From positions 1 through 64,000 of IMG/VR virus record IMGVR_UViG_3300032320_002688: 64,000 bases of DNA; one strand, given 5' to 3'. This document shows positions 18,973-43,986 of the stretch, piece after piece; position 1 is the first letter of the stretch; each line of letters opens with the position of its first letter. The position numbers and the translations under genes were made by a program. The notes beneath the pieces were generated by a model. That model had not been told where the DNA came from and did no database searches. It saw only the letters and a list, made by a program, of their open reading frames with translations. Origin of the DNA: a virus. Taxonomy: Duplodnaviria; Heunggongvirae; Uroviricota; Caudoviricetes.

Positions 18973-18973
18973 G

Positions 18974-21141: not shown

Positions 21142-21896
21142 TATAATTCATTTGGGTTAACAATCGTTGTTCCTTTTCTTTGTACTACATAAGTAGCGCA
21201 TTTGTTAGCATAGTTAATTGCTTTAACAATATCACCTGTTTGGCAAAACTTAACAGCTAAACCAGCTAAAAATGTATCTCCAGCTCCAGTATTATCCTTA
21301 ACGTCTACTTTTTGAACAGGATAAACTTTACCATCATGAATACATCCTTGACTACTTATAGTTACAATAGTTTTATCTAATATTTTTTGTGATACATGTC
21401 CTCTACATTTAGCAAATTCACTTTCGTTTATTTTAATGTAGCTAATTTTATCAGCAAATATATTATTGATTACTTTTTTAGTATCTAAAAATGTTATGTT
21501 AGAATTTTCAGCTATGTAAGTGATATCATCTTCTTCTAAAAATCCTTTACAATAATCACTTATAACAACAGCATCAAATGCTCTAAAATTTATTTTTTCT
21601 AAATCAGTAACTCGAGCTATATGTTCCTCTCCAGTATCAACTCTAACAAACATATGGTTTGTTTTAGAGTCAACATACCTGGTTTTATGTATTTGTTCTT
21701 TATTAGTTAAAGTAGTTACTTCTGCTCCTAATGCCTCAATGTTTCTAACTACATTACCAGCCATACCTGGATATGTAATTGTTTCTGCGGGTACCATTAC
21801 TGGTACTGGAGCATCAGGACACATTCTAAGACATTTACCATAAACGTAAACGTCCATACAACTATCTCCAACTACTAATATTTTAGGTTTTTTCAT
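21141..21896 (-). CDS. PfkB-family sugar kinase, HldE/RfaE domain I-like
   Basis: ILVVGDSCMDVY N-terminus; C-terminal NTGAGDTF anion-hole motif. Confidence 0.7.
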   Translation of the reverse strand: MKKPKILVVGDSCMDVYVYGKCLRMCPDAPVPVMVPAETITYPGMAGNVVRNIEALGAEVTTLTNKEQIHKTRYVDSKTNHMFVRVDTGEEHIARVTDLEKINFRAFDAVVISDYCKGFLEEDDITYIAENSNITFLDTKKVINNIFADKISYIKINESEFAKCRGHVSQKILDKTIVTISSQGCIHDGKVYPVQKVDVKDNTGAGDTFLAGLAVKFCQTGDIVKAINYANKCATYVVQRKGTTIVNPNEL

Positions 21897-21897
21897 A

Positions 21898-22299
21898 TTA
21901 CCAACTAATTTCCCAATCTTTAAAATCGGCTGCTAAACAATCTATTTTATAATCTTTTCTACCACCAACTACTTCTTGAATTTTGTTTTTAGCGGTGTTT
22001 CTAATTCCATTTAAACCATGAGTTAATTCTAGGTTATTACCATCTTTAATTCCCTTACGATAATTTGATTCGTTATGCCAAATGTGTAAGTTCATTTGTG
22101 ATAATACTACAATCGCTCTGATTGTCTCGGCTGTTACTTTTCCATTTTGTTCATCCAACAAGATTTGAATGTCATGTACTATGTCGTTAATTTCTTGAGC
22201 GTATTCATCTTTATGATCAGCAATGAATACCTCTTTGAGTTGACTAATAGATAATCTGTCTACTAGTTCTGATAATGTGGGTAAATATTTTCTTTCCAT
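21898..22299 (-). CDS. hypothetical protein
   Basis: 133-aa ORF. Confidence 0.45.
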   Translation of the reverse strand: MERKYLPTLSELVDRLSISQLKEVFIADHKDEYAQEINDIVHDIQILLDEQNGKVTAETIRAIVVLSQMNLHIWHNESNYRKGIKDGNNLELTHGLNGIRNTAKNKIQEVVGGRKDYKIDCLAADFKDWEISW

Positions 22300-22301
22300 T
22301 C

Positions 22302-23213
22302 TTATAAGTTATTTAATTCTATTAGGGTATCCAAATATTTCTCCAATCGTTTGAAGAAAAATCCTTGTTCTTTAACTAATTCATAGTTGTTCTCTATATA
22401 AGGTAATCTACTATAGTAGTCTTCAGGAGTTAGTTTATTAATAATGTCTACTAATTCATTTTCATCATTAAAATATATAACACCACGTTCGTCGTACCAA
22501 TCACCTATATTAGGAGCACCCCAATAAATTGGTAATGTTTTAGTACCAAAACAATCTAATATTTTATCTGTAAAATAATGTTTGTGTTTTGAATTTTCAA
22601 CGGCTACATGAAACATCTTATGTGTGTTCCATACTTGTTTTTTACCATCACCCTCAATTGGGTTGCCGTTTGGTCCTATTTTTGTTTCGAAGTATCCAGG
22701 TCGTTGTCCTCTTTCTTGGTCAAAGTCATCTAATACTCTCCACCAATTGTTAGGTATCTGTATTTGATCACCTTTAGCTAATATGCGTTGACGTAATTTA
22801 TGTCCGTCTAACATTTCGAGAATACCACTTAAGAAAGTAACCCCAAACTCACGTTCAGGGTTAGTTTCAAATGTGTTTATATAGTTAATATCTAAGTTAG
22901 TTTCACCATGTAAAAATAAACTATAATTAGGAGTATCACCTAATATTTCTTCATCCCAACTTAATACAGCGGAAAATGCGTTATAATTATTTTTTACAAA
23001 TGAATGTAAACCAAATAATTCATTTGGTTCATTCAGTACAATCAAATTAACATCACTATATTCACTCGCATCTCGAGGAACATAATCATTAAATATTGTT
23101 ATTGATTTATTCTTATATTTTTCTAAACAACCTAATTCTCTTTCGTAACGTTCTATAGGTAGATAACTACTATATAGTTTCATAAAACTTATTTTGTTTT
23201 TCTTGTCTATCAA
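22302..23213 (-). CDS. GT10-like (alpha-1,3-fucosyltransferase-motif) glycosyltransferase
   Basis: FHVAVENSKHKHYFTDKILDCF matches the FucT motif FxLxFENSxxxxYxTEK. Confidence 0.5.
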   Translation of the reverse strand: MIDKKNKISFMKLYSSYLPIERYERELGCLEKYKNKSITIFNDYVPRDASEYSDVNLIVLNEPNELFGLHSFVKNNYNAFSAVLSWDEEILGDTPNYSLFLHGETNLDINYINTFETNPEREFGVTFLSGILEMLDGHKLRQRILAKGDQIQIPNNWWRVLDDFDQERGQRPGYFETKIGPNGNPIEGDGKKQVWNTHKMFHVAVENSKHKHYFTDKILDCFGTKTLPIYWGAPNIGDWYDERGVIYFNDENELVDIINKLTPEDYYSRLPYIENNYELVKEQGFFFKRLEKYLDTLIELNNL

Positions 23214-23784
23214 TATCTTTAATATGAGTTAAAGACCATTCTTCTAAGGCCGGTAATTGAGCTGATGTTTTAAATCCGGTTAGGCGTTCATGTACTTTAT
23301 TAATCCATTGAATTTCGGGTTTATTTGCACATATACGTGTTTGATAATCGGGCCAGTTAATCCAACCATTATCATCTACAAACCATCTCCATTTATCAAT
23401 GTGAGCTTGAGTTAAACCATTTACTTTATTAACTCGAGGAACTGCTATTAAATCAACTATACCTTTATTTAATTCTAAAAATTCATGGATGTTTTTAGAA
23501 AAATAATAATTTAATGTTTCATCAGCATCAATAAAGAAAATCCAATCTTTAGTACATAAACTTTTAAGATTATTTTTAAATGTAGCAAAGTCTTTATTTA
23601 ATGGATGGAAATAATTCATTAACTTGTACTTATTAACTACCTCTTTTACTTCATCAGTAGCAGTAATATCCATCTGTACCACTATTTCATCTTCCTCTCT
23701 AATATTTTTTACAAGTTGCTGTAAGAGTTTATCTAATTCCTCATGTTCGTTATGAACAGTAATTGCAAAACTAATAGTAGCCAT
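23170..23784 (-). CDS. GT2-family glycosyltransferase
   Basis: ISFAITVHNE...FFIDADETL (DxD). Confidence 0.5.
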   Translation of the reverse strand: MATISFAITVHNEHEELDKLLQQLVKNIREEDEIVVQMDITATDEVKEVVNKYKLMNYFHPLNKDFATFKNNLKSLCTKDWIFFIDADETLNYYFSKNIHEFLELNKGIVDLIAVPRVNKVNGLTQAHIDKWRWFVDDNGWINWPDYQTRICANKPEIQWINKVHERLTGFKTSAQLPALEEWSLTHIKDIDRQEKQNKFYETI

Positions 23785-23788
23785 AATG

Positions 23789-24250
23789 TTAATTTTGATC
23801 GTTAAATACTCCGATGTATTCTAAAGCATCCATAAAATTAGTTCTTTCAAACAATTTAAGAGACTTCATATCGGTTTTGTGGGTATAATATTCTTCTGTT
23901 CCTGGTTTTTTGAATTTTGCTTTTTCCTCTTCTTCTACTTCAGTCATCAACACACCAGCCCATTTCCATTCTTCCTTGTTTTTACCATAAGCAAAAACAG
24001 TACCTTGGTTTTCAATGTTAACTGATTGAGGGTACCAAACACGTCCTTCACTATCAGTATGTTTTATGTCAACATAAAGATAAGGTAATGATTGATCATA
24101 TTCTTCAAAGTTAAATTCACCTTCTCTAATCAAATCAGATGTTTGATATCCACATCCGAAACAAGCGTAATTTGAATGAAACTCATTAATTGGGGTTTGA
24201 TAGCAAGCATCGCTACCGCATTTGGGACATATTACTAAATTGTCTTCCAT
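23789..24250 (-). CDS. zinc-ribbon protein
   Basis: CPKCGSDACY...CFGCGYQT. Confidence 0.45.
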   Translation of the reverse strand: MEDNLVICPKCGSDACYQTPINEFHSNYACFGCGYQTSDLIREGEFNFEEYDQSLPYLYVDIKHTDSEGRVWYPQSVNIENQGTVFAYGKNKEEWKWAGVLMTEVEEEEKAKFKKPGTEEYYTHKTDMKSLKLFERTNFMDALEYIGVFNDQN

Positions 24251-24304
24251 ACTATATCTAAATTATAAGTGTTATTTGAATAGGTGAATATTACTCCACC
24301 TGTA

Positions 24305-25597
24305 TTATTTTGGTAATTCAATTTTATCTATTTTAGGTAACTTTAATTCTACTTTCTTAGGAACAAATGCTTCAAATATTGTATCTAATTTTTCAGTCAT
24401 TTTTTCTAATGAGAAGTTTTGTTTATTTCTAAATGCTAATTGTTTTGCTTTAGGAAGATATTTTTTATAATTTTCAAATACATCTTTCATTAACCCAATA
24501 GCATATCCTTGATCTACATTAAACCAACCACCTTGTTCTAGTATAAAGTCATTTACTGCTGATTTATCAACTGCTTTTACTTCACCTGGAATTAAATTAG
24601 CAAATTCGGGATCTAAGAAATCTAAATGACCTGACCAACCTGATGCTAATAATGGTTTTTGTGTTAGTGTAAATTCTAATAATGGGCGACCAAATCCTTC
24701 ACCTTTAGTAAATGATAACATTGCTTTTACTTTAGGGTGGTTATATAAGAAGTTCATTTGAGAATCTTCTAATTCACCATGTAATAAATAAATGTTAGGT
24801 AAAGTAGACGTTTTAACTTCACTTTTAATAGCATCTATTTTTTTCAATACTTCCTCTCTATCCATAATAGAAGCAGGACCGTGAGATACTTTTAATATTA
24901 ATCCAGGAGCATTCTTTTTATTTTTAAATGCTTCTAAGAACATTCTAATCATTAATGCTACATTCTTTCTATCTTCACCAAATCCTCCAGGTAACCAATG
25001 ACCTACAAATAAGAAATTAAAATCAGATTCAATTTCATCTAATGCTTCTACTAATTCATCAGCAGGTATTTCATCATCGCTCATTGGAAAGTATTTCTCT
25101 AAATCTGCACCCTCAAATAATACTTGAATTGGTTTTTCTAATACTAATGTACCTTCAGGAGCATTTGTTGTTTTATTTCTTCTTTCAAATTTAGATTCTT
25201 CAAATACTTTTTTAGCATGTTCAGATGATACTAAAGTTAAATTCATTTTATTAATACCTTCAATCCACGTGGGAGCACATATTGTAGTTTCAATACCTGC
25301 TGTAATACCAATATTGTATTTTCCTACTGGTTGAAATTCGTTAGGTACTGTAATTTGAATCCACACATCTGGTTGTGATTGTAATTGTGGTGCTGGGTAG
25401 TAGTTGTCTAATATTTGTTTTTCTTCTGCTATATCTGCATTTAAAGCCCCATAAGGTGTATTACCCCATCGCTGTGGCATGATTTTAATATCATATTTAC
25501 CTGTTTTAAATAGAGCTTTTACTATGTCTCTTGAACGTGCGCCATATCCACTGAATGTATCAATTGGACAGCTAACTATAACTAATGGTTTTGCCAT
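24305..25597 (-). CDS. GT4 (group 1) glycosyltransferase
   Basis: SFTKGEGFGRPLLEFTLTQKPLLAS C-terminal EX7E-type motif. Confidence 0.65.
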   Translation of the reverse strand: MAKPLVIVSCPIDTFSGYGARSRDIVKALFKTGKYDIKIMPQRWGNTPYGALNADIAEEKQILDNYYPAPQLQSQPDVWIQITVPNEFQPVGKYNIGITAGIETTICAPTWIEGINKMNLTLVSSEHAKKVFEESKFERRNKTTNAPEGTLVLEKPIQVLFEGADLEKYFPMSDDEIPADELVEALDEIESDFNFLFVGHWLPGGFGEDRKNVALMIRMFLEAFKNKKNAPGLILKVSHGPASIMDREEVLKKIDAIKSEVKTSTLPNIYLLHGELEDSQMNFLYNHPKVKAMLSFTKGEGFGRPLLEFTLTQKPLLASGWSGHLDFLDPEFANLIPGEVKAVDKSAVNDFILEQGGWFNVDQGYAIGLMKDVFENYKKYLPKAKQLAFRNKQNFSLEKMTEKLDTIFEAFVPKKVELKLPKIDKIELPK

Positions 25598-25600
25598 ATT

Positions 25601-27037
25601 TTAATATACTAATTTGTGACGTAATTTTTTAACTGGATATTTTTCTACTTTGATTAATTCGAATGATTTTCTTGGTTTCCAAGTTGCTAATGTTTGATCA
25701 ATATATTTGATAACATTATTACACATCCAACGGGCAGACATCATAGATTCATCACTAGTAACCCATTTGTGTCCTGACATCCCACGTCTTGCTCTTTCTT
25801 CTTTATTTAAATCAAAACATTCTTTGATTGCATTAGCTAAATCTCTGAAATCAACTCTATCATCCCAAATGTATGGAGTTGGAGGTGAACCTACAAGTGA
25901 TCTATTACTTGGGAATACTGGTATTGCCCATTCACCACACTTTTTATATGTGCCGAAGTGATTTGAACAAAAGTTCTCATCAAATTTAATCCACTCACCA
26001 TTCTCATCTTCAAAACGCATTTGGTCTTGCATACCACCTGTTACGTTAGCAATAATCATCTTTCCAGCCATCATCGCCTCAGTAAGTGACAATCCCCATC
26101 CTTCGTTAGATGAAGGTAAAACACAAACGTCTGATAAATTATAAAGTAAATTAAGTTCCTGAGATGATATTCTATTATTTGAGAACATTACATTTGCTTT
26201 TTCAGTGCATATTAAGTCTTTAACTGCAACTAAATCCGTTCCGTGTTCATCAATTGGTTGAGTATGAAGTACTAAAGCACATTTTGCTGCTTGTTCATCT
26301 GTTAATCCTTCAACAAATGTTTGATATGCAGCAATTAAATCAGAAGTACATTTACGTCTAATATTTCGAGCATTGTAAAAAACAATATACTCATATTCTT
26401 TATCTCCGAAAAGTGACTTTTTAATTTCTTGTAATCTAGTATATTCACTATGCTTAGTATCTACAGGAAAAAATATTTTTTCATTAATACCATGAGGTAC
26501 ATAAGCAACAACTTTATCTTTTGCTTTATCACCTAATACTAATCTATTAATATTTTCTGTTTGTTTACTGATAGCAAGTAATGCATCACATGACTCATAA
26601 TACGGCTCATTATATAATGGAGCAGGTAAGTCATCCCAAATATTTAAATAAATAAATGGTAATTGTTTTCTAAATTCATTTTCAACTTGAAATAACCAAA
26701 TCCAATATCTAGGATCTGTAAAGAAAAAGATAGCATCTGGTTTTTCGGCTGTGATTAATTGTCTAATCAAATCAGCTGTACCATAACCATCAATCGGAAG
26801 AATTTTAACATTAGAATCAGTAATACCCGCGTGCGCGTTAGTATCTTCTGCTACGTCAATAATTTTTCCTTGTTCTGGGTGTTTAATAGCGGCACCAACA
26901 TTAAACCAATTGTATCGGTGTGCCGTTCCGATTACGATTTCTCTTGCCATCGTTGCAATACCAGAATGCATTCTAATATCGTCGCAGAGGAATAAAATCT
27001 TCTTCCTGTCGCTTTGCGGAATGTAACCTTCTTTCAT
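25601..27037 (-). CDS. GT4 (group 1) glycosyltransferase
   Basis: VLPSSNEGWGLSLTEAMMAGKMIIAN. Confidence 0.65.
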   Translation of the reverse strand: MKEGYIPQSDRKKILFLCDDIRMHSGIATMAREIVIGTAHRYNWFNVGAAIKHPEQGKIIDVAEDTNAHAGITDSNVKILPIDGYGTADLIRQLITAEKPDAIFFFTDPRYWIWLFQVENEFRKQLPFIYLNIWDDLPAPLYNEPYYESCDALLAISKQTENINRLVLGDKAKDKVVAYVPHGINEKIFFPVDTKHSEYTRLQEIKKSLFGDKEYEYIVFYNARNIRRKCTSDLIAAYQTFVEGLTDEQAAKCALVLHTQPIDEHGTDLVAVKDLICTEKANVMFSNNRISSQELNLLYNLSDVCVLPSSNEGWGLSLTEAMMAGKMIIANVTGGMQDQMRFEDENGEWIKFDENFCSNHFGTYKKCGEWAIPVFPSNRSLVGSPPTPYIWDDRVDFRDLANAIKECFDLNKEERARRGMSGHKWVTSDESMMSARWMCNNVIKYIDQTLATWKPRKSFELIKVEKYPVKKLRHKLVY

Positions 27038-29188: not shown

Positions 29189-30067
29189 TTATATTGTTGT
29201 TAGTTTAGCAATGCAGCCCATAAAATTAATTTCTTTATCTGGGGCTGTTACAGATTGAAATTGATATTCAGCTATAGTAATAATAAATTCAGGGTCATCG
29301 TGTTTATCAAATAACATTCTGTATAAATTATTAAAATCTTTTATATTATTATCTGCTACAATTTGTCTAATAGTAGCAAATGCATCTTTTCTATCTAATG
29401 CCTCTGAAATCTGTTGAGGGTAATTTGCTTCTCCTAAGCTTTCCACAACTAAAGTATCTTTTCTAATAGAACCTTGGATTGTGTTGAGTGCACGTCTAAT
29501 ATCAGGATAAGTCTTTTTAACAATAATAGATAAATCTTTATTATCAAATACGATAGATTCCTTATCTAAAATGCTAGCTAAATGACGGGCAACTTGTTTG
29601 ATTGGAGGAGAACTCAGTTCATACAACGTCAAACGTGATTGAAGTGGCTCAATAATACGCTCAACGAAGTTACACGTAAAAATAAAACGTGTATTACCAC
29701 TAAATGATTCGATAATATTTCTTAATGCTGCTTGTGCGTTAATAGTAAGAAAATCCGCTTCATCCAATATAACAACTTTAATAGGTTGAAATGTAGCGGC
29801 TGAGGCGAATTGTTTAACGGTTTCCCTGATTGTATCAATACCATTTTCATCACTACAGTTAATGTAGATGAAATCGCATTGTATGTTTTTTACTATTAGT
29901 TTAGCAGCTGTGGTTTTACCAGTGCCTGGAGAACCATGTAGCAATAAATTAGGTAAATTACCTTCGGTAATCCATTTTTGCAAATCAGCAATAAAATGTT
30001 CATTACCAATATAGCCATCGATAGTATCGGGTCTATATTTTTCGACAAATAACGTATGTTTACTCAT
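29189..30067 (-). CDS. sliding-clamp loader AAA+ ATPase (gp44/RFC small subunit-like)
   Basis: LFVEKYRPDTIDGYIGNEH...LLLHGSPGTGKTT. Confidence 0.8.
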   Translation of the reverse strand: MSKHTLFVEKYRPDTIDGYIGNEHFIADLQKWITEGNLPNLLLHGSPGTGKTTAAKLIVKNIQCDFIYINCSDENGIDTIRETVKQFASAATFQPIKVVILDEADFLTINAQAALRNIIESFSGNTRFIFTCNFVERIIEPLQSRLTLYELSSPPIKQVARHLASILDKESIVFDNKDLSIIVKKTYPDIRRALNTIQGSIRKDTLVVESLGEANYPQQISEALDRKDAFATIRQIVADNNIKDFNNLYRMLFDKHDDPEFIITIAEYQFQSVTAPDKEINFMGCIAKLTTI

Positions 30068-30105: not shown

Positions 30106-30681
30106 TTATCTTAACATATTATCTACATCTGTGAGAGGAGAATCCCATAAATTAATAGCAATTGCTTTACGGGTACCTTTAGTTACAGGAGTAACTGCGT
30201 GTAATTGACTAGCATCAAATATGACTAATCGATTGTATTTTGCTTCAATTAACTCATAAGGAGCATTGAAATCAGTAGAATGGGTTTTCCATACTTTAAG
30301 ATATCCACCTTCCATTTCGTCATTACAAGGATCTGGATAGAAAACAGTTCCAACTTTTGGGGTAACTAATTCTCCTGTTGTTTCGAATAATTTTTCATCT
30401 TTATCAAAATGAGATATTAAAGAAAAATCACCACCTTCATTACTGATGGTTTTATTAGCGTCATAAACGCCTACCCAATGTTCGAATCCACTTAATGAAA
30501 TGCGTTCTTGGATTGGGCAATGGTCGCGCCAAATATAAGTAATAAGATGTTGACGGAGAGTTGTTGCGGCATTATTCCACCAACCATTATACCAATGATA
30601 ACCTAGTTTCCAGAAGTCTTCTGATTGCTGGATTTGACGTAACAAATCAGTATCTTTTACAAAGTTATCTATTATTATCAT
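30106..30681 (-). CDS. P4H-type 2OG-Fe(II) oxygenase
   Basis: ISHFDKDE (HxD) ... QLHAVTPVTKGTRKAIAINLW (distal His and Arg). Confidence 0.6.
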   Translation of the reverse strand: MIIIDNFVKDTDLLRQIQQSEDFWKLGYHWYNGWWNNAATTLRQHLITYIWRDHCPIQERISLSGFEHWVGVYDANKTISNEGGDFSLISHFDKDEKLFETTGELVTPKVGTVFYPDPCNDEMEGGYLKVWKTHSTDFNAPYELIEAKYNRLVIFDASQLHAVTPVTKGTRKAIAINLWDSPLTDVDNMLR

Positions 30682-30692
30682 AGGTGGAAATT

Positions 30693-30914
30693 TTAGTAAA
30701 TATTTTCTTGATTTCGTTTTGCTTGTTCTGCTTCTTTATACATTCTGATCCAAGTTAAAGACACATCGACCGGAGCTAATACCCAAGCCATAACTAATAC
30801 CATTATAGAATCCATTTCTGGAGAAGTTCCATAATCAATGCCCTTTGTTTTGTATTTTTTATTTAGTTGTATGAAACAGTAAATAATGCAAACAACATAG
30901 TAAATAATAAACAT
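30693..30914 (-). CDS. small membrane protein
   Basis: 73 aa, two hydrophobic helices. Confidence 0.4.
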   Translation of the reverse strand: MFIIYYVVCIIYCFIQLNKKYKTKGIDYGTSPEMDSIMVLVMAWVLAPVDVSLTWIRMYKEAEQAKRNQENIY

Positions 30915-30935
30915 AACTTAATAATTTTTTAATTT

Positions 30936-31022
30936 GCGGAGAGACAGGGATTCGAACCCCAGATACCCTTTCAAGTATTTCGGTTTTCAAGACCGACGCA
31001 TTCAACCGCTCTGCCATCTCTC
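30936..31022 (-). tRNA. tRNA-Ser (anticodon UGA), type II with long variable arm
   Basis: reverse complement GGAGAGATGGCAGAGCGGTTGAATGCGTCGGTCTTGAAAACCGA...GGGGTTCGAATCCCTGTCTCTCCG; 7-bp acceptor stem; anticodon loop CTTGAAA; closely resembles E. coli tRNA-Ser(UGA). Confidence 0.85.
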
Positions 31023-31067
31023 CGTCGTGAATTACTTCACTGTAACTGAATCAGCCTTAACAGTTGA

Positions 31068-31196
31068 ATCAGCAACTACTGCTGTTGTATCAGTTGATAC
31101 TGCAGTTGAATCAATTTTTACTTCAGTTGAAGCACCATTACCACCACATGCTACTAAAGTAGTTGCCAATGCTAATGCGAATACGATTTTTTTCAT
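31068..31196 (-). CDS. tiny putative lipoprotein (about 42 aa, not in ORF track)
   Basis: MKKIVFALALATTLVACGGNGAST... signal peptide plus LVAC lipobox; coordinates approximate. Confidence 0.3.
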
Positions 31197-31254
31197 AATT
31201 TGTTTTTTTAGTTAATTATAACTTATTTGTGGATTATAAATATACGATAATAAT

Positions 31255-31998
31255 TTAGGGTATCCAAGTTTTCTTTGAAGAAAGTATTCTTTCTCCAGAA
31301 AGATAATAGGGGTTATTTTCAGTATTAGTAGTGTATCCAAATAGGATGTCACGTGTAATTTCTTTTGGTGATAGTTTTAATTTAACAACGTTACGTGGAT
31401 GGAAATTATGATAGAAGTATCTATTCCCACTATACACGGGTTGTGTTTTCATATCGTCCCAAGCTAATCGAATAGGATTTTCTTCCCCAGCATATACACC
31501 CACTCTGTATGTAGCGTAGTATGATGTTCGTGCATCATCAGCAGTTAACATAGATATAAAATTAATATTTTTGTTATTTGAGGATAATGAATGAGCAAAA
31601 TCAGAAACTACTGTTACATAACATTTATGTTTATCTGTAAATTCTTCTATTACTGAAAGAGTATCCTGATGGAAATTAATATCTTCATGTTGTAACCATA
31701 TAGCTACTTTTCTATCAAATAAATCAAATTTATCCCAAGCTACCTTTACAATTTTATTATTTCTGAATCCTAATACTTCAATATACCAATCGATATAGAA
31801 TTTCATTCCTAATTCATTCCAGTTATTTCCCCACATAGGAGTACTTTCTACTAATTCGTAATTACTACCTACTTTTTCGTAGTATCGAATTAAAAATTCA
31901 CCCCAAATATCAGAATCATCTGTTCTAATTTCAACAAAAGGACCAGCAAAGTAGTCATGGTATTTAAATGTAACTTGAGGCCAATTAATTTGAGACAT
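31255..31998 (-). CDS. hypothetical protein
   Basis: 247 aa, 14-nt overlap with the carbamoyltransferase gene. Confidence 0.5.
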   Translation of the reverse strand: MSQINWPQVTFKYHDYFAGPFVEIRTDDSDIWGEFLIRYYEKVGSNYELVESTPMWGNNWNELGMKFYIDWYIEVLGFRNNKIVKVAWDKFDLFDRKVAIWLQHEDINFHQDTLSVIEEFTDKHKCYVTVVSDFAHSLSSNNKNINFISMLTADDARTSYYATYRVGVYAGEENPIRLAWDDMKTQPVYSGNRYFYHNFHPRNVVKLKLSPKEITRDILFGYTTNTENNPYYLSGERILSSKKTWIP

Positions 31999-33616
31999 AT
32001 AACATATTATTAATGATTAAATAATCGATAGAACCCTTTTCTAAATGAGCAAATGCTTGTTCTGGTGTGTCAATAATAGGTTCACCATGTCCATTAAATG
32101 AAGTATTAATTAAAACAGGAATATTAGTCCATTTATCATAATAATATAATATATTATAAAATACAGGATGTACATCTAGTCTTACAATTTGTGGACGTGC
32201 AGTACCATCTAAATGAGTAACTGCTGGGATTTTTTCCTTCCATTCTTCTTTTACATTATGACATAATGTCATAAATTCAGAAGCAAATTTTGATGATTTA
32301 ATATCAAATACTTCTTCTGCTTTTTCATGTAATACTATGGGAGCAAAAGGCATTGTTTCATCTCTTCCAAATCTCTGATTAAGATGAGAATGGTTATAAC
32401 GATTTGTTGCTTCCATTATAACACTTCTGTTACCTAATGCTCTAGGTCCTAATTCAAAGCGACCATTGAATATTCCAAATACTTTTCTGTTTGTTAATTC
32501 GGATACTATAAATTCCATGTCGTTGGTATATCTACCTTTTGCTTTTACATTAAATTTAAGGGCAGCATCCATTACTTGTTCATCAGTGTATTCAAATCCA
32601 AAAAATACATCTTTAGTTGGTTTATGATCCCAATCCCCGTGATTCCATGAAGCTAAAATAGCAGCACCTAAAGATAAACCTTCATCTCCCATAGGTGGGG
32701 CAATGAATATTTCTTCAAACCCACACTCTTCATTTATGCGTTGATTTGCTTTTACATTGGCGAATATTCCACCAGACAATACTAATTTTTTATGTTCAGG
32801 ATATCTTGCTTTGATATCTTTAATATAAGGTATTATTTGGTCTTCAAAGTGTTTTTGTGTTGTAAACGCTATATCTGCTTTTTTTTCTGCAGTATCAAAA
32901 AATCCATTACCCTCGCACTGCCTAAAAGCCCAATTAGCTAAAGGAAAATTATGAGGTGTACTAAAACGTAAATTACCTTGGTATTTACAAACTTCATCTA
33001 ATATATTATAAAAATCTTGATTTAGTTTACCCTGAGGGGCTAGTCCCATTATTTTTCCTTCATCTTTAACAGGTGTGTAATCAAAATGTTTACATAATTC
33101 AAACCAGATACATCCTAATGAACCTTCTAATGGTTCCAAGTTTTGATGTACTTTAGTCATTTCACCATTTTCACCTATCCAAACTGTACTATAATTTCTT
33201 TCATTACTGCCACCATCCATAGTAACAATTAATGTTTTTTCATTAAATCCAGCTAAATAGTATCCTACCGCAGCATGACATTGATGATGTTCAAAAAACA
33301 TAATTGGTTTATTAAACATCTTTAATTTCTGCTTAAAATAATAGTAGTTAGCTACTTTATCAGGAGAACTATCATAACTACCCAAATCATATCTAAACTG
33401 TCCTGGATCTGATATAGCTATATAATCAACATCTTCAAATTTTATACCTGTTGCCTTTTCTATAGCAACATACGATGCTTTTGGAGATTCAAACCAGCTA
33501 TATCCGTGTTTTACTCTTGTTATTCGTTCGTTTTCAACAGCATATAAAATTTTACCATCTTCTATTAGTGCTGTTGAGTATTGGTGTGCACCAAAGAACA
33601 TCCCGTATACTACCAT
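31985..33616 (-). CDS. carbamoyltransferase (NodU/CmcH family)
   Basis: N-terminus VVYGMFFGAHQYSTALIEDGKILYAVENERITRVKH is typical of NodU/CmcH; about 540 aa as expected for the family. Confidence 0.7.
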   Translation of the reverse strand: MVVYGMFFGAHQYSTALIEDGKILYAVENERITRVKHGYSWFESPKASYVAIEKATGIKFEDVDYIAISDPGQFRYDLGSYDSSPDKVANYYYFKQKLKMFNKPIMFFEHHQCHAAVGYYLAGFNEKTLIVTMDGGSNERNYSTVWIGENGEMTKVHQNLEPLEGSLGCIWFELCKHFDYTPVKDEGKIMGLAPQGKLNQDFYNILDEVCKYQGNLRFSTPHNFPLANWAFRQCEGNGFFDTAEKKADIAFTTQKHFEDQIIPYIKDIKARYPEHKKLVLSGGIFANVKANQRINEECGFEEIFIAPPMGDEGLSLGAAILASWNHGDWDHKPTKDVFFGFEYTDEQVMDAALKFNVKAKGRYTNDMEFIVSELTNRKVFGIFNGRFELGPRALGNRSVIMEATNRYNHSHLNQRFGRDETMPFAPIVLHEKAEEVFDIKSSKFASEFMTLCHNVKEEWKEKIPAVTHLDGTARPQIVRLDVHPVFYNILYYYDKWTNIPVLINTSFNGHGEPIIDTPEQAFAHLEKGSIDYLIINNMLYVSN

Positions 33617-34284
33617 AACTTTATAATATTAGTTCGGTCTAAAGGACCTATTTGTAAATCTGTATTTTTAGAATCTACTTCGTCTGCTCTATAACTATCA
33701 TTATCCCATATGGCATGATCAATATTGTCAGTGTACCAAAGAGATAAAGTATAACGTTCCCCACTAGTAATCATTTTGACACCGTGGGCATGTTCTAATC
33801 CTGATTTGAATCCTATTAAGTCTCCTCTTTCAGGTTTAATTTCAAGATAAGGGTCAATAAAGAAAAATTCTCCCCCTTCATATTTTGAACTATCACTAAG
33901 ATAAACTATAGAAGAAAATTGTCTATAATAAACATAGTTAGGTCTTCCGTCAGGCCAATAAGCATTATCAGCATGTACCCCTAGGTTACGGCCAGAAAAC
34001 CATTTAACTAATACTTGTGTATCAGACCATATTTGTTCAGGTTGAAAGAAATCAATGTGTTTTTGTCGAGTATTATATGCTAACTGCTCAACAAATACTT
34101 TTGCTCTTTTATCCCTAAGACCTTGTTTATGTAAATTTGTTTTGTCAAAATAACTGAAGTCTGCATTACTAAACATGTCAGTTTGATGGAGCATATCGCT
34201 ATCTCTATCATACTCACTGATTAGAAAATCGCAGACTTCAGGGGGACAAAAGTTTGGTATATGAAAATAGTCAGAACGAATCAT
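33610..34284 (-). CDS. P4H-type 2OG-Fe(II) oxygenase
   Basis: GVHADNAYW (HxD) ... EHAHGVKMITSGERYTLSLW (His, RxS). Confidence 0.65.
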   Translation of the reverse strand: MIRSDYFHIPNFCPPEVCDFLISEYDRDSDMLHQTDMFSNADFSYFDKTNLHKQGLRDKRAKVFVEQLAYNTRQKHIDFFQPEQIWSDTQVLVKWFSGRNLGVHADNAYWPDGRPNYVYYRQFSSIVYLSDSSKYEGGEFFFIDPYLEIKPERGDLIGFKSGLEHAHGVKMITSGERYTLSLWYTDNIDHAIWDNDSYRADEVDSKNTDLQIGPLDRTNIIKLW

Positions 34285-34309: not shown

Positions 34310-35956
34310 TTACATTCCTAAATTCATACCACCACCATTGTCATTTTTTTCATCTTTTTTCTCGAACACAACTGATTCTGTTGTTAAAATTGTTCCTGCT
34401 ACGGACGCTGCATTTTCGAGAGCAATACGTGTCACTTTTACAGGATCAAGTAAACCTTCATTTAACGCGTCGGCAACAGTATCTGTTTTAACATTAAATG
34501 TTGTAAAGTTGTTGCCTTCTGGATCTTGCTCAAATACGATATGAAGAATTTCATACCAGTTATCTTTACCAGCATTATCCATAATTTTCTTAAATGGTGC
34601 ATAACAAGCTTGTTTTACAATCTTGATACCCGAAATGATATCGGCGTTAGTGTCACCTATTTTTCCAAAGATATTATTAAACGCTTTAATCAACGAAACA
34701 CCACCACCAGGAACAATACCTTCAGCTAATGCTGCTTTTGTTGCGAATAAAGCATCTTCAACTCTATCTTTCTTTTCTTTAATTTCAATTTCGCTATTTC
34801 CACCAACTGAAACGATAGCAACACCACCAATTAATTTACCTAAACGCTCTTGTAATTTTTCTTTTTCAAAGAACGATTGTGCTTTATCAATTTGTGATTT
34901 AATTTCTTCGGCACGTGTAGAAATTGCTTCTTCAGTACCACCACCATCAATTACAGTAGTTTTATCTTTATTAACATTAACTGTTCTTGCTTTACCAAGA
35001 TATTGAGTGTATTGAGCAACAGGAATTTTATCTAATTTTAATCCTTTTTCTTTACTAATAACTTGACCACCTGTTACAGTAGCTAAATCTTCAAGGGCCA
35101 TTGTTCTACGTTCGCCAAAATCAGGTGCTTTAACAGCAATAACTTTAACGATACCTCTTGCTTTGTTAACGATTAATGTAGCTAATGCTTCACCATCAAT
35201 ATCTTCCGCAACAATTAATAATGATTTATTTTCAGCGCTTACTTTTTGTAATACTGGAAGCAATTCAGCAGCTGTTGTAATTCTACCGTCAAAAATTAAT
35301 ACATAAGCATCATCAATGATAGCTGACATTGTATTATTATCGGTAACAAAATAAGGTGATTTGTAACCACGCTCAAACTGCATACCCTCAACTACTTCAA
35401 GAGATGTTTCGCCTGATTTACTTTCTTCAATTGCAACTACGCCTTCACGGCCTACTTTTTCAAGAGCAGTAGCAATTAAATTACCAATTTCTTCATCATT
35501 ATTACCTGAAATGGTTGCTACAGCTTTAATGTGTTTTTCATCACTGATATCGAGAGCAAGTTTTTTAAGTTCATCAACTACTAACTTTACTGCTTTATCA
35601 ATACCTTTCTTTACTTCTACTGGGTTAGAACCTTGACCTAACAATTTAAGTCCTTCTTCTACCATTGTAGTAGCAAGTAATGTTGATGTTGTTGTACCAT
35701 CACCAGCTTCATTTGCTGATTTAATACTTACTTGTTTTACAAGTTGAGCTCCTAAATCTTCTACTTGGTCCTCTAATTCAGAAAATGCTTTAGCAACTGT
35801 AACACCATCTTTTGTTACTTTAAGTTCACCACTTGCATCTTTAATTAAAACTGTTCTACCACCTGGACCTAAAGTGGAAGAAACACTGTTATTCAACTTT
35901 TGAATACCAGCGAGTAATTTATTTTTTAAATCAATTCCATACGATGTTTCTACCAT
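34310..35956 (-). CDS. groEL: chaperonin GroEL (Cpn60)
   Basis: 548 aa; ATP-binding GDGTTT; C-terminal GGGMNLGM; full-length colinear with Hsp60. Confidence 0.95.
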   Translation of the reverse strand: MVETSYGIDLKNKLLAGIQKLNNSVSSTLGPGGRTVLIKDASGELKVTKDGVTVAKAFSELEDQVEDLGAQLVKQVSIKSANEAGDGTTTSTLLATTMVEEGLKLLGQGSNPVEVKKGIDKAVKLVVDELKKLALDISDEKHIKAVATISGNNDEEIGNLIATALEKVGREGVVAIEESKSGETSLEVVEGMQFERGYKSPYFVTDNNTMSAIIDDAYVLIFDGRITTAAELLPVLQKVSAENKSLLIVAEDIDGEALATLIVNKARGIVKVIAVKAPDFGERRTMALEDLATVTGGQVISKEKGLKLDKIPVAQYTQYLGKARTVNVNKDKTTVIDGGGTEEAISTRAEEIKSQIDKAQSFFEKEKLQERLGKLIGGVAIVSVGGNSEIEIKEKKDRVEDALFATKAALAEGIVPGGGVSLIKAFNNIFGKIGDTNADIISGIKIVKQACYAPFKKIMDNAGKDNWYEILHIVFEQDPEGNNFTTFNVKTDTVADALNEGLLDPVKVTRIALENAASVAGTILTTESVVFEKKDEKNDNGGGMNLGM

Positions 35957-35960
35957 GTTA

Positions 35961-36248
35961 TTAGTTTTTAATAATTCCTAAAATATCATTCTCTTTACAA
36001 ATAAAATAATCTTGTCCTTCAACGCTAATTTTCATTGCGCCTAATTTTGGGATAAGTACTTTATCTCCTACTTTTAATTCTGTTTGTTTCCAAACGCCCA
36101 TATTCCAGTTAAAAGTATCGCTTACTGCAGCTACTTCACCGATTTCGGGTCTTTCTTTTCCCAAATCCGGGATAATAATGTTTCCTACCATCTGTTCTGT
36201 TTCTTCTACAGGGGTAAGGATAATGTGTCCATTTAAGGGTTGTATCAT
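35961..36248 (-). CDS. groES: co-chaperonin GroES (Cpn10)
   Basis: 95 aa, 4 nt upstream of groEL; ILGII C-terminal pattern and mobile-loop region. Confidence 0.85.
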   Translation of the reverse strand: MIQPLNGHIILTPVEETEQMVGNIIIPDLGKERPEIGEVAAVSDTFNWNMGVWKQTELKVGDKVLIPKLGAMKISVEGQDYFICKENDILGIIKN

Positions 36249-36294
36249 AATTTTTCGTTTTTTTAAATATAAGTAAAATAATTTAAATAACCAA

Positions 36295-36310
36295 AGAGGG
36301 CGCTAACTCT
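36295..36310 (-). promoter_or_regulatory. GC-rich motif AGAGGGCGCTAACTCT upstream of groES-groEL
   Basis: shares the core AGGGCGCTAAC with 36777..36792 (there on the opposite strand, as GGTTAGCGCCCTAAGG). Confidence 0.35.
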
Positions 36311-36313
36311 TGA

Positions 36314-36730
36314 TTACTTAATAGCCAACACTTTAGGTTTGGCTTGTTCCGCGAATGGAATAGAAATTAATAATAAACCATTATCCATTTGGGCATCACC
36401 ATTTTGAAGATCAAAACGCGATGAAATTTTATAACCTAGATTAAATGAACGACGAGCAATACCCTTATGGATATAGTTAGTTATGTCGATTTCATTTTCT
36501 CCATCTTTTTCATATGTAACTCGTAAGATATCTCCTTCGATGTTAATATTAACATCTTCTTTAGATAATCCAGTGCATGCAATTTCAAAATGCAAGCCTT
36601 CTTTTGTTTCGTAAATGTCTACGGGGTGTGAAATTTTGGTCTCCAGTGCTGGAGCGAAGAATGAGTCGTTGTTGAAGAAATTCTTGAACAAGACATCGAA
36701 TGGGTCTGTGTGTGTTTTCAATAGTGTCAT
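36314..36730 (-). CDS. small heat-shock protein (Hsp20/alpha-crystallin family)
   Basis: 138 aa; alpha-crystallin domain; C-terminal I-x-I-type ISIPF. Confidence 0.75.
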   Translation of the reverse strand: MTLLKTHTDPFDVLFKNFFNNDSFFAPALETKISHPVDIYETKEGLHFEIACTGLSKEDVNINIEGDILRVTYEKDGENEIDITNYIHKGIARRSFNLGYKISSRFDLQNGDAQMDNGLLLISIPFAEQAKPKVLAIK

Positions 36731-36807: not shown

Positions 36808-37530
36808 TTAATTGTTATTTCTCGCAACAAAGTATGTAACAGAAATTGGATCTTCTTCAAAAGTAATTTTAGATAATCCCTGATTGCTAACATATACTGT
36901 TCCTTTGCCTTCTTTATTTGCTGAAAATATTTCTTTAAATATATTGGCAGGAAATGGTATTGGATCAGTACTCATAATAAATTCACCTGTTTCTTTGAAT
37001 TTAATTTTATTAGCATGTTGTTCAGCAGCACCCATCACTATTTCAACTTCTTTACTTTCAGGTGTTAGATGTGCTTGCATTGTGAACCTAGGGTTCTTAT
37101 CAAGTGCAGCATACGATTTAATAAACTTAGTTATAAATTCATTATTAATATCAAATTCAAAATCATAGTTAATTGGTTCCTCAATAGTTGCTACTGAAGG
37201 GATAATTGATGAATCGCTTAAATGATATGATAAATCATATTGATTATCAGCTATATTTAATTTTATAGGTGTTAATTGTTTACTTTCAACTTTTAACTCA
37301 ATAAAATCATTAGTAATAGATAATAAACTAAGTAATTGCGATGTATTAAATATACATAACTCACTATCATCAATATCAATATTATTACAAGTAATTTTTG
37401 TAATAGCGTTTTTTGTTGTTAATACAGCATTGATATTTAATTCTTTATCCTTGATATTCCATTTAACTGATTCGCACAATCCATTTAGATAGTACTTATC
37501 GATAACGCTTTGTAGTATTTCTTTATTCAT
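36808..37530 (-). CDS. hypothetical protein, possible sliding clamp (gp45-like)
   Basis: 240 aa, size and position between clamp-loader and polymerase modules; PIPFP segment; no reliable alignment. Confidence 0.3.
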   Translation of the reverse strand: MNKEILQSVIDKYYLNGLCESVKWNIKDKELNINAVLTTKNAITKITCNNIDIDDSELCIFNTSQLLSLLSITNDFIELKVESKQLTPIKLNIADNQYDLSYHLSDSSIIPSVATIEEPINYDFEFDINNEFITKFIKSYAALDKNPRFTMQAHLTPESKEVEIVMGAAEQHANKIKFKETGEFIMSTDPIPFPANIFKEIFSANKEGKGTVYVSNQGLSKITFEEDPISVTYFVARNNN

Positions 37531-41906: not shown

Positions 41907-42440
41907 TTATCCTTGTCTTTGTTTGTCATTCTGCCACTGCCCATCATATAATTCAGCAGGATCACATTCATGGAAATATATTTGCGCTACTCTAGCGTCT
42001 TCTTCAATAAAAATAGTTTCTGTTACTAACATAATTGTTCCCATGTTATCTGTTTCAAAACCAGGATCAAATACTGGAGAATTAATTAATGTACCATTTC
42101 TCCACATTGATGAACGTTGCTTAATGAATGCTACACGATTAGCAGGTATTCTACAACCTTCGTTAAAGGTAATATCATAAGTACCTTCATGTAACAACCA
42201 TCCTGTTCTACCATCCAAGTTTAATTTATCAACAGGAGTATAATCAGCTAGTTCTGTTTTTTCTTTTAATACTTTTCCAATTCTACCTGTTTTTTCTAAT
42301 GTTACAGGATCAATTTGAGGATTATATCCTACTTTATTTACTGCTTTAAGGGTAATATCAAAACCAACTTGTGCTGGTTTACCCTTAGCATTATCTAATT
42401 TAAGGAGTCCTTCTCCTAATATTTGTTGTACGTTTAACAT
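41907..42440 (-). CDS. dCTP deaminase/dUTPase-family protein
   Basis: 177 aa; beta-rich dUTPase-like pattern GFDITL...GRTGWLLHEG...IMLV. Confidence 0.5.
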   Translation of the reverse strand: MLNVQQILGEGLLKLDNAKGKPAQVGFDITLKAVNKVGYNPQIDPVTLEKTGRIGKVLKEKTELADYTPVDKLNLDGRTGWLLHEGTYDITFNEGCRIPANRVAFIKQRSSMWRNGTLINSPVFDPGFETDNMGTIMLVTETIFIEEDARVAQIYFHECDPAELYDGQWQNDKQRQG

Positions 42441-42591: not shown

Positions 42592-43005
42592 TTACTTTCT
42601 TTCTCTTGCATAATCTTGTATTGTTTTTGAATCTGCTCTTTCCCATGGATATACTATCCAATCTTTATCTACTACTTCGTAATGGAATGTTGGTTGTACA
42701 GATGCAGTTTCTTTTGTGTGGATTGTTGCTGTTGTGATGACATTATACTTCTGTAATGTTCCCCCAGAATCGCAGATATCATCTACTATTAATACTTTAT
42801 TATTTAAGACCATTCCAGGCCTAAACAATGGAATGTCTAATTTATGAGATAACATTACAGCAGGTATTAATCCTCCTCTAGGCATTCCAAATATATATTG
42901 AATATCTAACCCACTGGATATTACTTGAGATGCTATATTATCTACAGCAGTCTCAATATAATCCCAGGTAATAAATCTTTTGTTCATATTAGAATTTTGT
43001 TCCAT
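42592..43005 (-). CDS. gpt: xanthine-guanine phosphoribosyltransferase-like (type I PRTase)
   Basis: FITWDYIE, PRGGLIPAVMLSHKL, VLIVDDICDSGGTL, WIVYPWE align with E. coli Gpt IVTWDML / SRGGLVPGALLAREL / IDDLVDTGGT / WIEQPWD. Confidence 0.7.
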   Translation of the reverse strand: MEQNSNMNKRFITWDYIETAVDNIASQVISSGLDIQYIFGMPRGGLIPAVMLSHKLDIPLFRPGMVLNNKVLIVDDICDSGGTLQKYNVITTATIHTKETASVQPTFHYEVVDKDWIVYPWERADSKTIQDYARERK

Positions 43006-43621
43006 TTACTTCAATCGCGTGTAAGAATTCTTCTCTAATTAAATTATCTTTTTCCATAAACACACCACTAAATTTGTTTGTAGTCATTGTTGATGGGTGT
43101 TTAATACCTCTATGTGAGCAACATGTGTGCTTACAAGCAATACTAACGGCTACTGATGGGCAATCCATTTTAGTAGATAAGTAATCATGAATTTGTTGTG
43201 TTAATGATTCTTGCATTTGTGGACGGCGACTAAACCATTCTACAATACGATTTAATTTACTTAAACCAATAACGTTTTCACCGGGCACATAAGCTAATGT
43301 AGCAAATCCAGTAAATGCTAAGTTGTGGTGTGCACACATACTAACAATAGGAATACCTGATTGGATAACTAATCCATTATAACCATCATCATTAGGAAAT
43401 ACTGTAATGTTAGGTTCGTCTGTAATACTGCCTACAATTAAATCTTTTAACCATGCTTTAGCTACACGACGAGGTGTATCTTCAGTTTGTCTATCAGCTG
43501 TGTAGTCAAATCCTACAGCATTAAGGAAATCACCATATGCTTTAGCTGCTTTATCAATCATTTTTTCTACCTCTTTAGGTGTACGAGATAGACTACCATT
43601 TGATTTTTTTAATAATTCCAT
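42989..43621 (-). CDS. folE: GTP cyclohydrolase I
   Basis: MCAHHNLAFTG...VIGLSKLNRIVEWFSRRPQMQESLTQQI matches FolE CEHHLVPF...VIGLSKIARIV..AQRPQVQERLT. Confidence 0.9.
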   Translation of the reverse strand: MELLKKSNGSLSRTPKEVEKMIDKAAKAYGDFLNAVGFDYTADRQTEDTPRRVAKAWLKDLIVGSITDEPNITVFPNDDGYNGLVIQSGIPIVSMCAHHNLAFTGFATLAYVPGENVIGLSKLNRIVEWFSRRPQMQESLTQQIHDYLSTKMDCPSVAVSIACKHTCCSHRGIKHPSTMTTNKFSGVFMEKDNLIREEFLHAIEVNGTKF

Positions 43622-43622
43622 A

Positions 43623-43859
43623 TTATACTTTTTCTTGTTTTTCTTTCAATTTACTAACTTCTTTTTCAAGTTCCAAATGTTTTATAGCAATTGTTGAAGC
43701 CATAATTCCTATCTGTTCCCAGATTCTTTGAATTTCCTTGTTTTGATAAATTACTTCATCTTTAGTTTTATCGATTTTGCGTATCAAATATACTTGCATC
43801 AATGATACAAAAATAAAGATACCAAAATATACTTGCTCCAACGTAATAGTGAATTGCAT
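43623..43859 (-). CDS. small membrane protein
   Basis: 78 aa, N-terminal TM helix and coiled-coil tail. Confidence 0.4.
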   Translation of the reverse strand: MQFTITLEQVYFGIFIFVSLMQVYLIRKIDKTKDEVIYQNKEIQRIWEQIGIMASTIAIKHLELEKEVSKLKEKQEKV

Positions 43860-43878
43860 GTTATTTAAATATTATTTT

Positions 43879-43986
43879 AGCTGTCTCGTACAAAAAAGTT
43901 AATGCCCAATACATGATGAATGTAAACAAACCAACTCCGACTACTTTAATAGCTAATTCTAAAAATTTTATTAATTTATTTTCCAT
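43879..43986 (-). CDS. tiny TM ORF (about 35 aa, not in track)
   Basis: MENKLIKFLELAIKVVGVGLFTFIMYWALTFFVRDS read by eye; its start lies in a duplicated 29-bp leader. Confidence 0.2.

Follow-up and report, generated by a model that had tools for sequence, protein, structure and literature searches.

The 64,000 nucleotides analysed here, hereafter the window, are positions 1 to 64,000 of the IMG/VR record IMGVR_UViG_3300032320_002688 and belong to an uncultured T4-like myovirus, of whose genome (~196 kb) they make up roughly one third. Their G+C content is 32%, and virtually all genes lie on the minus strand, including every window feature given below. The genes under study encode an O-carbamoyltransferase (CT) of the NodU/CmcH/TobZ family (31985..33616, 543 aa) and, following it, a protein of 247 aa (31255..31998). 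Two 2-oxoglutarate (2OG) and Fe(II)-dependent oxygenases of the prolyl 4-hydroxylase (P4H) type flank this pair, one of 224 aa upstream (33610..34284) and one of 191 aa downstream (30106..30681). An earlier note on this DNA had located all of these open reading frames, and the gene order that we find agrees with the bracketing it described. Its statement that the combination is not a standard phage module was overstated, since CTs together with multiple 2OG oxygenases have long been known as accessory genes of T4-like cyanophages (Sullivan et al. 2010, PMC3037559), as have tandem dioxygenase arrays, including that of phage Syn9 (Iyer et al. 2010, PMC2938197). The interesting association at this locus is a different one: CTs of the NodU/TobZ type are paired with a degenerate half-transferase of the TibC type, a combination that is widespread among phages and specific to them.

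The proposed membership of the CT in the NodU/CmcH family was borne out by profile searches. Both Pfam domains of the protein, which consists of a Kae1-like and a YrdC-like domain, score above their gathering cut-offs (Carbam_trans_N, 136.8 bits for a cut-off of 24, E = 1.5e-39; Carbam_trans_C, 179.2 bits for a cut-off of 27, E = 6.6e-53). The protein also matches phrog_1601 (E = 2.4e-101) and the solved structures of NovN, TobZ and GdmN, with E-values between 5e-55 and 1e-46. In the alignment with TobZ, residues H14, H114, H118, D137 and D338 of that enzyme correspond to H11, H110, H114, D134 and D311 of the window CT; these metal ligands and the catalytic histidine are invariant in 14 homologues, in which the motifs GPRALGxRS and NTSFN are conserved as well. 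TobZ W408, G421 and R423, positions that carry a residue signature in the 5-hydroxymethylcytosine carbamoyltransferases, correspond to I, G and R in the window CT. Among cultured phages, CT genes occur in 148 records, mostly of T4-like cyanophages and including the pelagiphage HTVC008M, and they form a PHROG of their own.

The 247-aa protein had been left as an unknown in the earlier note. It is a truncated TibC/Aah-like module, the constant partner of the CT and the key to the locus. Neither Pfam nor PHROG contains a match to it, its close homologues are restricted to the phage clade of the window, and a tblastn search of 50,697 phage records returned nothing. TibC is a cytoplasmic protein O-heptosyltransferase, and four independent methods concur in identifying the 247-aa protein as the front half (barrel plus N-lobe) of an enzyme of this TibC/Aah type. 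In a Foldseek search of the PDB, all 21 matches at E<=1e-3 were TibC chains; a profile of the 247-aa family, compared with PDB sequences, had TibC as its sole significant match (E = 6e-6); the NCBIfam model TIGR04414 (hepto_Aah_TibC) matched the protein with E = 5.7e-9, although only over positions 56-161 of its 374; and the best match in a Foldseek viral library was a 'Glycosyltransferase Aah/TibC [uncultured Caudovirales phage]' (E = 3e-11). The predicted model comprises a beta-barrel (residues ~8-90) and a GT-B N-lobe (~97-166), followed by helices of low confidence (173-247). A profile search with the family also recovered a 383-aa protein whose N-terminal half aligns with it (hhalign probability 97.5%) and whose C-terminal half is a Glyco_transf_9 domain. 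The 215-aa gene that follows the CT in one related contig (L002) was considered as a further member and proved to be unrelated.

The 247-aa protein is without the C-lobe that holds the ADP-heptose site, the beta-hairpin thumb, the Cys4 iron finger and the catalytic aspartate, while a full-length relative (P0153) has C-lobe, thumb and iron finger. The catalytic D110 of TibC, of which a D110A mutant has been described (PMC4358343), is aligned with F108 of the 247-aa protein, a residue that is not conserved. An LGD-type motif, typically xLGDxI(A/S)W, is present in most of the full-length neighbours printed and in none of the printed short-form variants, and across 55 distinct short forms conservation of at least 80% is found only at hydrophobic (or structural) residues. 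With C-lobe, iron finger and catalytic aspartate gone, the 247-aa protein is therefore no glycosyltransferase. The loss of the D110 equivalent and of the LGD motif, together with the conservation of hydrophobic residues only, marks it as a non-catalytic derivative, which would most simply be a binding module.

No stretch of the partner alignment was conserved enough for a locus search, so that IMG/VR was scanned with an alignment of CT homologues. This yielded 80 viral loci with CTs at 35-90% identity, which fall into 27 clusters at 70% identity; flanking features were counted within 6 kb of the CT. A gene for a TibC-N-like module abuts the CT in 79 of these loci (57 short forms downstream, 10 short forms upstream and 12 long glycosyltransferase fusions), and in the sole exception the contig ends 428 nt upstream of its CT. 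The pair is present in all 27 clusters, whereas none of 79 bacterial or archaeal CT loci (CT identity 30-37%) has such a module beside the CT. In relatives whose CT is 44-54% identical, the gene right after the CT encodes a homologue of the 247-aa protein with an identity of 18-26%. Two further short members of the family, found among 1.84 billion representative sequences, are likewise encoded directly after a CT (contigs L018 and L020), and in L060 a degenerate module fused to an LGD-containing TibC-like domain occupies this place. In the window, the stop of the CT gene overlaps the start of the 247-aa gene by 14 nt. The conserved unit is thus the CT with its 247-aa module, and not an oxygenase with a CT: the functional core of the locus is a two-gene, translationally coupled cassette. 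Our search of the literature found no description of a CT paired with a degenerate TibC half-transferase.

Many of these loci contain more than one CT. A second or third paralogue is found in 42 of the 80 (L024, L039-L044, L048 and others), and the short partner commonly stands between two CTs. The two CTs of contig L011 are only 36% identical to each other, which suggests two different carbamoylation specificities that would share a single partner.

The setting of the cassette in the window is a replication module. In transcription order, the locus starts with the sliding clamp (36808..37530) and continues with Hsp20, GroES and GroEL (138, 95 and 548 aa; 34310..36730), the 224-aa oxygenase, the CT and the 247-aa protein. 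Behind them follow a 54-aa lipoprotein (31032..31196, lipobox LVAC), a tRNA-Ser with anticodon UGA (30936..31023, found with ARAGORN and kept in position in relatives), a predicted membrane protein of 73 aa (30693..30914; no match in Pfam or PHROG, conserved in relatives, with a homologue at 8105..8332 of L003), the 191-aa oxygenase and, as the last gene, the clamp loader (29189..30067). Some relatives have an extra tRNA-Leu(UAA) after the tRNA-Ser(UGA), which the window does not contain (8339..8425 in L003, 7451..7537 in L006), and the set of GroEL, GroES and Hsp20 accompanies the CT cassette also in the distant relatives L011, L013 and L014. The family-B DNA polymerase of the window is at most 36% identical to those of cultured phages, the best match being Microcystis phage Mel-JY01, and no cultured phage matches the region at near-DNA level. 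Since polymerase, clamp and clamp loader are contiguous in Mel-JY01, the whole block is an insertion in the replication module, and its place there tells little about its function. A scan of 29.8-36.8 kb for promoters and terminators gave counts not above those of shuffled controls.

Several genes around the cassette in relatives were followed up as well. A 309-aa gene upstream of the CT, at one point suspected to be a divergent thymidylate synthase, encodes the C-terminus of a family-B DNA polymerase that is split in two, and genes of 244-246 aa are sliding clamps. The split polymerase consists of a piece of ~570-615 aa and the separate 309-aa piece (885..4502 in L011, 1616..4326 in L013 and 2886..5995 in L014), with small open reading frames between the two parts in L014. 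Upstream of its DNA polymerase, the window has a protein of the dCTP deaminase/dUTPase fold (41907..42440) at the position that a PRA-PH/MazG pyrophosphohydrolase takes in relatives.

Elsewhere in the window, the phage encodes a good deal of sugar chemistry. A cluster of sugar-nucleotide and glycan-decoration genes (15816..27037), annotated with Pfam and NCBIfam, contains a cupin, two SDR epimerases/dehydratases, an RmlC-like epimerase, two methyltransferases, a GT10-like protein, a GT2 and two GT4-like glycosyltransferases. In the same stretch lie a heptose-7-phosphate kinase similar to HldE/RfaE domain I (21141..21896; TIGR02198, E = 2.9e-38; PfkB) and a heptose-1-phosphate adenylyltransferase similar to domain II (16201..16641; TIGR02199, E = 9.2e-29; CTP_transf_like). 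Judged by their families, these two enzymes would supply ADP-heptose, the donor of TibC-type transferases, and the cluster is the probable source of the glycan decorated by the CT. The window also has a sulfation module of two Sulfotransfer_2 proteins and an APS kinase (7788..9792 and 13090..14034), in which an NMNAT-like nucleotidyltransferase (8898..9296) might substitute for sulfate adenylyltransferase; a trio of APS kinase, CTP_transf_like and DUF2061 proteins near a CT in the contig with P0089 resembles it.

One relative is a marine contig from Tara (L022), with a CT 40% identical. There, a large IPT/TIG protein and a GT9+GT4 fusion precede the CT and its short partner; after one further gene, for a protein of 330 aa, come a full TibC-like GT9, then a tail fibre and a GT2. 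The fibre combines a T7-tail N-domain and an S74 chaperone with long collagen repeats of the form (GTS)n/(GSS)n. Fibres of this build, with a Phage_T7_tail N-domain, more than 130 residues of collagen-type repeats and S74, are encoded at 10491..12095 of L022 and 10491..12413 of L023, and the number of repeats varies between these otherwise near-identical Tara contigs, the proteins being 534 and 640 aa long.

The explanation that we favour, and hold with moderate confidence, is that the CT O-carbamoylates a heptose-containing glycan or glycoprotein and that its partner serves as the acceptor-recognition subunit. By analogy with TobZ, the YrdC-like domain of the CT would make carbamoyl-AMP from carbamoyl phosphate and ATP, and the metal centre of the Kae1-like domain would be the site at which a hydroxyl receives the carbamoyl group. 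The dead half-transferase would recognise the acceptor and bring to the CT a TibC-type substrate, which could be a protein rich in Ser/Thr or the heptose that such a protein already bears. What would result is a heptose or glycoprotein with an O-carbamoyl group, akin to the 7-O-carbamoyl-L,D-heptose that occurs naturally in the lipopolysaccharide (LPS) core of Pseudomonas aeruginosa (PMC7168646). The sugar chemistry could come from the phage itself, with its enzymes for ADP-heptose activation, its epimerases, methyltransferases and sulfotransferases, and its several glycosyltransferases. In HTVC008M, the genes around the CT encode a glycosyltransferase, a methyltransferase and a UDP-glucose dehydrogenase. 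As for the carrier, a virion fibre, a secreted protein and the host envelope may all be considered, each being compatible with the sequence, and our favoured target would be a glycan linked to a structural or secreted protein of the phage. The analysis shows the families of the proteins, the truncation of the partner with the loss of its motifs, and an adjacency of CT and partner that is nearly universal in phages and absent from cellular genomes; we infer a physical interaction between CT and partner, the nature of the acceptor and whatever part the oxygenases play.

A number of observations weigh against this explanation. The window itself, over its 64 kb, holds neither a full-length TibC-like gene nor a collagen-like open reading frame or fibre, and the cassette sits between sliding clamp and clamp loader, outside the sugar cluster and ~5 kb from it. 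At the position of TobZ K443, a residue of the YrdC-like site where carbamoyl-AMP is made, the clade of the window has a glycine (RFGRDE), and close homologues have K, E, N, H or G; with this position so variable, full activity of the CT is not to be assumed. Finally, the CTs of cultured phages (cyanophages, HTVC008M and RsoM2USA) come without the partner, and no TibC-like gene neighbours the CT in S-CAM8, S-SSM5, HTVC008M or RsoM2USA; the model may therefore not reach them.

The oxygenases that drew attention to the locus are genuine members of their families. All three proteins for which 2OG signatures had been claimed pass the PF13640 (2OG-FeII_Oxy_3) gathering score of 27 bits: the 224-aa protein (47.5 bits, E = 3.6e-12), the 191-aa protein (40.7 bits, E = 4.8e-10) and a third paralogue of 198 aa, 26 kb away from the CT (3319..3915; 42.2 bits, E = 1.6e-10; phrog_61, E = 1.3e-39). 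Sequence alignment recovers the motif of the metal-binding triad and a basic 2OG-binding residue in each, as H104-x-D106 ... H167 ... R177-Y-T (HAD) in the 224-aa protein, H91-x-D93 ... H161 ... R171-K-A (HFD) in the 191-aa protein and H118-x-E120 ... H173 ... K183 (HVE) in the 198-aa protein, so that the R-x-S part of the claimed signature does not hold literally. Profile classification places the three among P4H, prolyl 3-hydroxylase (P3H) and PiuC-type enzymes. Among solved structures, the 224-aa protein comes closest to prolyl 3-hydroxylase 1 (E = 2e-11) and next to PKHD/PiuC hydroxylases, which makes the label P4H-type a fair one; an AF2 model of this protein, built from an alignment of two sequences, reached a pLDDT of 28. 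The 191-aa protein aligns weakly with PiuC, over a region that takes in the distal histidine and the arginine, and resembles gp42 of S-SSM5 (E = 5e-6). A fourth protein, of 206 aa (116..736), which had been suspected to be another paralogue, is a dioxygenase (phrog_81, E = 3.5e-11; no Pfam match) but of a different subfamily: its motif H111-x-H113 ... H170 ... R180 aligns with the HxH-type dioxygenases of cyanophages and pelagiphages, among them gp40, gp42 and gp43 of S-CAM8 and gp164 of HTVC008M.

These enzymes lend themselves to an obligate two-step module, the first alternative to be weighed, in which P4H-type oxygenases make a hydroxyl, for instance on hydroxy-Pro/Lys or on a small molecule, and the CT carbamoylates it. 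Such a sequence of reactions has a precedent in cephamycin biosynthesis, where 2OG-dependent hydroxylation by CefF precedes O-carbamoylation by CmcH. The stop of the 224-aa gene overlaps the CT start by 7 nt, an arrangement kept across the clade. Five cultured cyanomyophages (S-CAM8, S-SSM5, S-MS29, P-RSM4 and S-TIM4) have a homologue of the same oxygenase directly beside the CT, at a distance below 100 bp; the one in S-CAM8 (SXCG_00047) is 25% identical to the 224-aa protein over 181 aa. In HTVC008M, 2.4 kb separate the CT from a 2OG oxygenase. The wider distribution speaks against this scheme. A P4H-like gene lies near the CT in only three of the 80 viral loci (the clade of the window, one weak match and one gene at a locus edge) and in none of the 79 cellular ones, and the CTs of relatives at 44-54% identity are not flanked by any oxygenase. 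The CT and the oxygenase array of the cyanophages are transcribed in divergent directions. The oxygenase orthologue is present in 342 phage records and the CT in 148, and many phages, such as S-PM2, Syn30 and S-SM2, have the former without the latter. Hydroxylation followed by carbamoylation, put forward in the earlier note, is therefore no conserved logic of these loci; as the oxygenases are dispensable in almost all lineages, it is at best a clade-specific elaboration, and we consider an obligate module of this kind unlikely.

The two flanking oxygenases are additions specific to the clade of the window. Their presence can be reconciled with carbamoylation of a glycan or glycoprotein: P4H-type enzymes usually act on proteins, and a protein-borne target would therefore fit. 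The upstream oxygenase, which is translationally coupled to the CT, may have the same protein as its target of hydroxylation; the 7-nt overlap and the recurring adjacency of CT and oxygenase in cyanophages make this plausible. Elsewhere in the window, a membrane-anchored protein of 90 aa (10137..10409) ends in a tail rich in Pro, Ala and Lys (KPTPAKKPATKKPAAKPAAKKPA). The prolyl 4-hydroxylase of chlorovirus PBCV-1 hydroxylates (PAPK)n peptides, and this similarity in composition makes the 90-aa protein a candidate substrate of the P4H-type oxygenases.

A second alternative keeps the heptose and moves it to the host. The CT and its partner would then carbamoylate heptose of the LPS core or of the general O-glycan of the host, altering receptors and blocking superinfection, or changing properties of the surface of the infected cell. 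The natural 7-O-carbamoyl-heptose is a feature of the LPS core, and many sugar enzymes of the envelope type are encoded in the window, together with sulfotransferases and a protein similar to GT10. The small lipoprotein directly downstream of the 247-aa gene is also in its favour: the 35 residues of its mature part contain four sequons of the form D(S/T)(A/I/L/V/M/T), the Bacteroidota-type O-glycosylation motif (defined in PMC8550257), all four are kept in L003-L006 despite sequence drift, and the background in the window proteome is 0.25 sequons per 100 aa. This lipoprotein may be a substrate of glycosylation or other modification, or a decoy, and it may hint at a host among the Bacteroidota. 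The cassette of L022, embedded among tail-fibre genes, is an argument on the other side, and a role confined to the host surface seems to us improbable, although no more so than the two-step module.

We put slightly less trust in a composite enzyme, in which the sugar-donor lobe of the heptosyltransferase would be functionally replaced in trans by the CT with its carbamoyl-AMP, and the O-carbamoyl group would be placed directly on Ser/Thr of a structural or secreted protein or on hydroxy-Pro/Lys that the adjacent P4H-type oxygenases would have produced. To our knowledge, enzymatic O-carbamoylation of proteins has not been described in any virus.

A role in DNA hypermodification, with the CT turning 5-hydroxymethylcytosine (5hmC) into 5-carbamoyloxymethylcytosine, is less probable than any of these. 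The N-lobe of a GT-B enzyme is able to accommodate DNA as acceptor, the beta-glucosyltransferase of T4 being an example, and the cassette does lie within a replication module. A phage CT of the NodU family is known to carbamoylate 5hmC in DNA, RNA and dNTPs (PMC8670742), and a PRA-PH/MazG gene, a domain that co-occurs with DNA-modifying CTs, is found ~3 kb away in relatives. Those DNA-modifying CTs are typically accompanied by a thymidylate-synthase-like dCMP hydroxymethylase, PRA-PH and a dCMP deaminase (PMC8670742). With a thymidylate-synthase query validated beforehand, we found no homologue of thymidylate synthase or dCMP hydroxymethylase in the window and none within 6 kb of the CT in the 80 viral loci, nor any thymidylate-synthase homologue in the 79 bacterial and archaeal loci; CTs on contigs with unmodified DNA are flanked by glycosyltransferases (PMC8670742). 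Comparison with Mel-JY01 marks the stretch from clamp to clamp loader as a place of insertion, where GroEL, GroES and Hsp20 are found too, and the phage already possesses a 7-deazaguanine pathway. We rate this route low and keep it because the window shows about one third of the genome. Of the targets suggested in the earlier note (a sugar, a protein side chain or a nucleobase), the evidence thus favours the first two, the nucleobase route being left without its thymidylate-synthase homologue. The 7-deazaguanine module (42592..47514), a DNA-modification module of the preQ0/archaeosine type, comprises a phosphoribosyltransferase, GTP cyclohydrolase I, a QueE-like protein, QueC and QueD; a 264-aa protein without a family match (46073..46867) occupies the position expected for a DpdA-type transglycosylase.

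Least credible of all is the absence of any joint function, with oxygenases, CT and 247-aa gene as independent residents of an insertion hot spot and the last of them a decaying glycosyltransferase remnant, since, although comparison with the closest isolate shows the block to be inserted and no polar residue of the partner is conserved, a remnant would neither stay beside the CT in 27 of 27 clusters, with partner identity down to 18-26%, nor preserve overlapping start and stop codons.

Since 2010, CTs and multiple 2OG oxygenases have been on record as accessory genes of T4-like phages from aquatic habitats, with no explanation at hand. The present analysis gives one large clade of these CTs a concrete context: a dead TibC-type half-transferase always, and active heptosyltransferases and collagen-like fibres sometimes. 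This suggests that such phages equip fibre or envelope proteins with glycans that bear heptose and carbamoyl groups and perhaps also methyl, sulfate or hydroxyl groups, a decoration that would bear on host recognition and on the evasion of defences. If the partner is indeed an acceptor adaptor, it would represent a new way to retarget an ancient carbamoyl-AMP enzyme. The distinction of this clade from the CTs that modify 5hmC is also of practical relevance when phage CTs are mined as epigenetic tools.

Among the closest known systems are the cyanomyophage arrays with a 'Nol-like carbamoyltransferase', where, as in the window, the CT stands next to a P4H-like oxygenase in a T4-like phage, and this adjacent oxygenase is homologous to the 224-aa and 191-aa proteins. 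The cyanomyophage CTs differ in being only 27-30% identical to the window CT and in having no TibC-like partner. The 5hmC carbamoyltransferase described by Yang et al. (2021, eLife, PMC8670742), which uses carbamoyl phosphate and ATP, is likewise a NodU-family protein from a phage, and is set apart by its gene context: no homologue of its hydroxymethylase companion, which is typically on the same contig within 3 kb, was found in the window or in the 80 related loci. The CTs of contigs with modified DNA form a phylogenetic branch of their own. With TobZ, NodU, NolO, NovN and CmcH (PF02543 + PF16861), the window CT has in common its build from two domains, the metal ligands of the Kae1-like part and a counterpart of TobZ H14. 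These enzymes use carbamoyl phosphate and ATP for the O-carbamoylation of sugar or hydroxymethyl hydroxyls, NodU, TobZ and NovN being, by their family names, sugar O-carbamoyltransferases. The window CT departs from them in its identity of only 30-37% to any cellular homologue, in its score against the NodU equivalog (135 bits for a cut-off of 1000), in a K443 equivalent of TobZ that is not kept and in the TibC-like module that always goes with it in these phages.

The partner, in turn, recalls two other systems. In split or two-subunit GT-B enzymes such as Alg13/Alg14, the N-terminal half is a separate polypeptide that provides a catalytic subunit with recognition of acceptor or membrane; in the arrangement proposed here, the catalytic subunit would be the carbamoyltransferase and not a cognate C-lobe. 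The bacterial autotransporter heptosyltransferases (BAHT) TibC and Aah (GT9; TIGR04414; PDB 4rap) have in common with the 247-aa protein an N-terminal beta-barrel that is flattened and lies against a Rossmann-like N-lobe, which is a peculiarity of TibC (PMC4358343). Just as tibC lies beside tibA, the modifier gene of the window adjoins candidate Ser/Thr-rich substrates, and the half-transferase has here been paired with a carbamoyltransferase instead.

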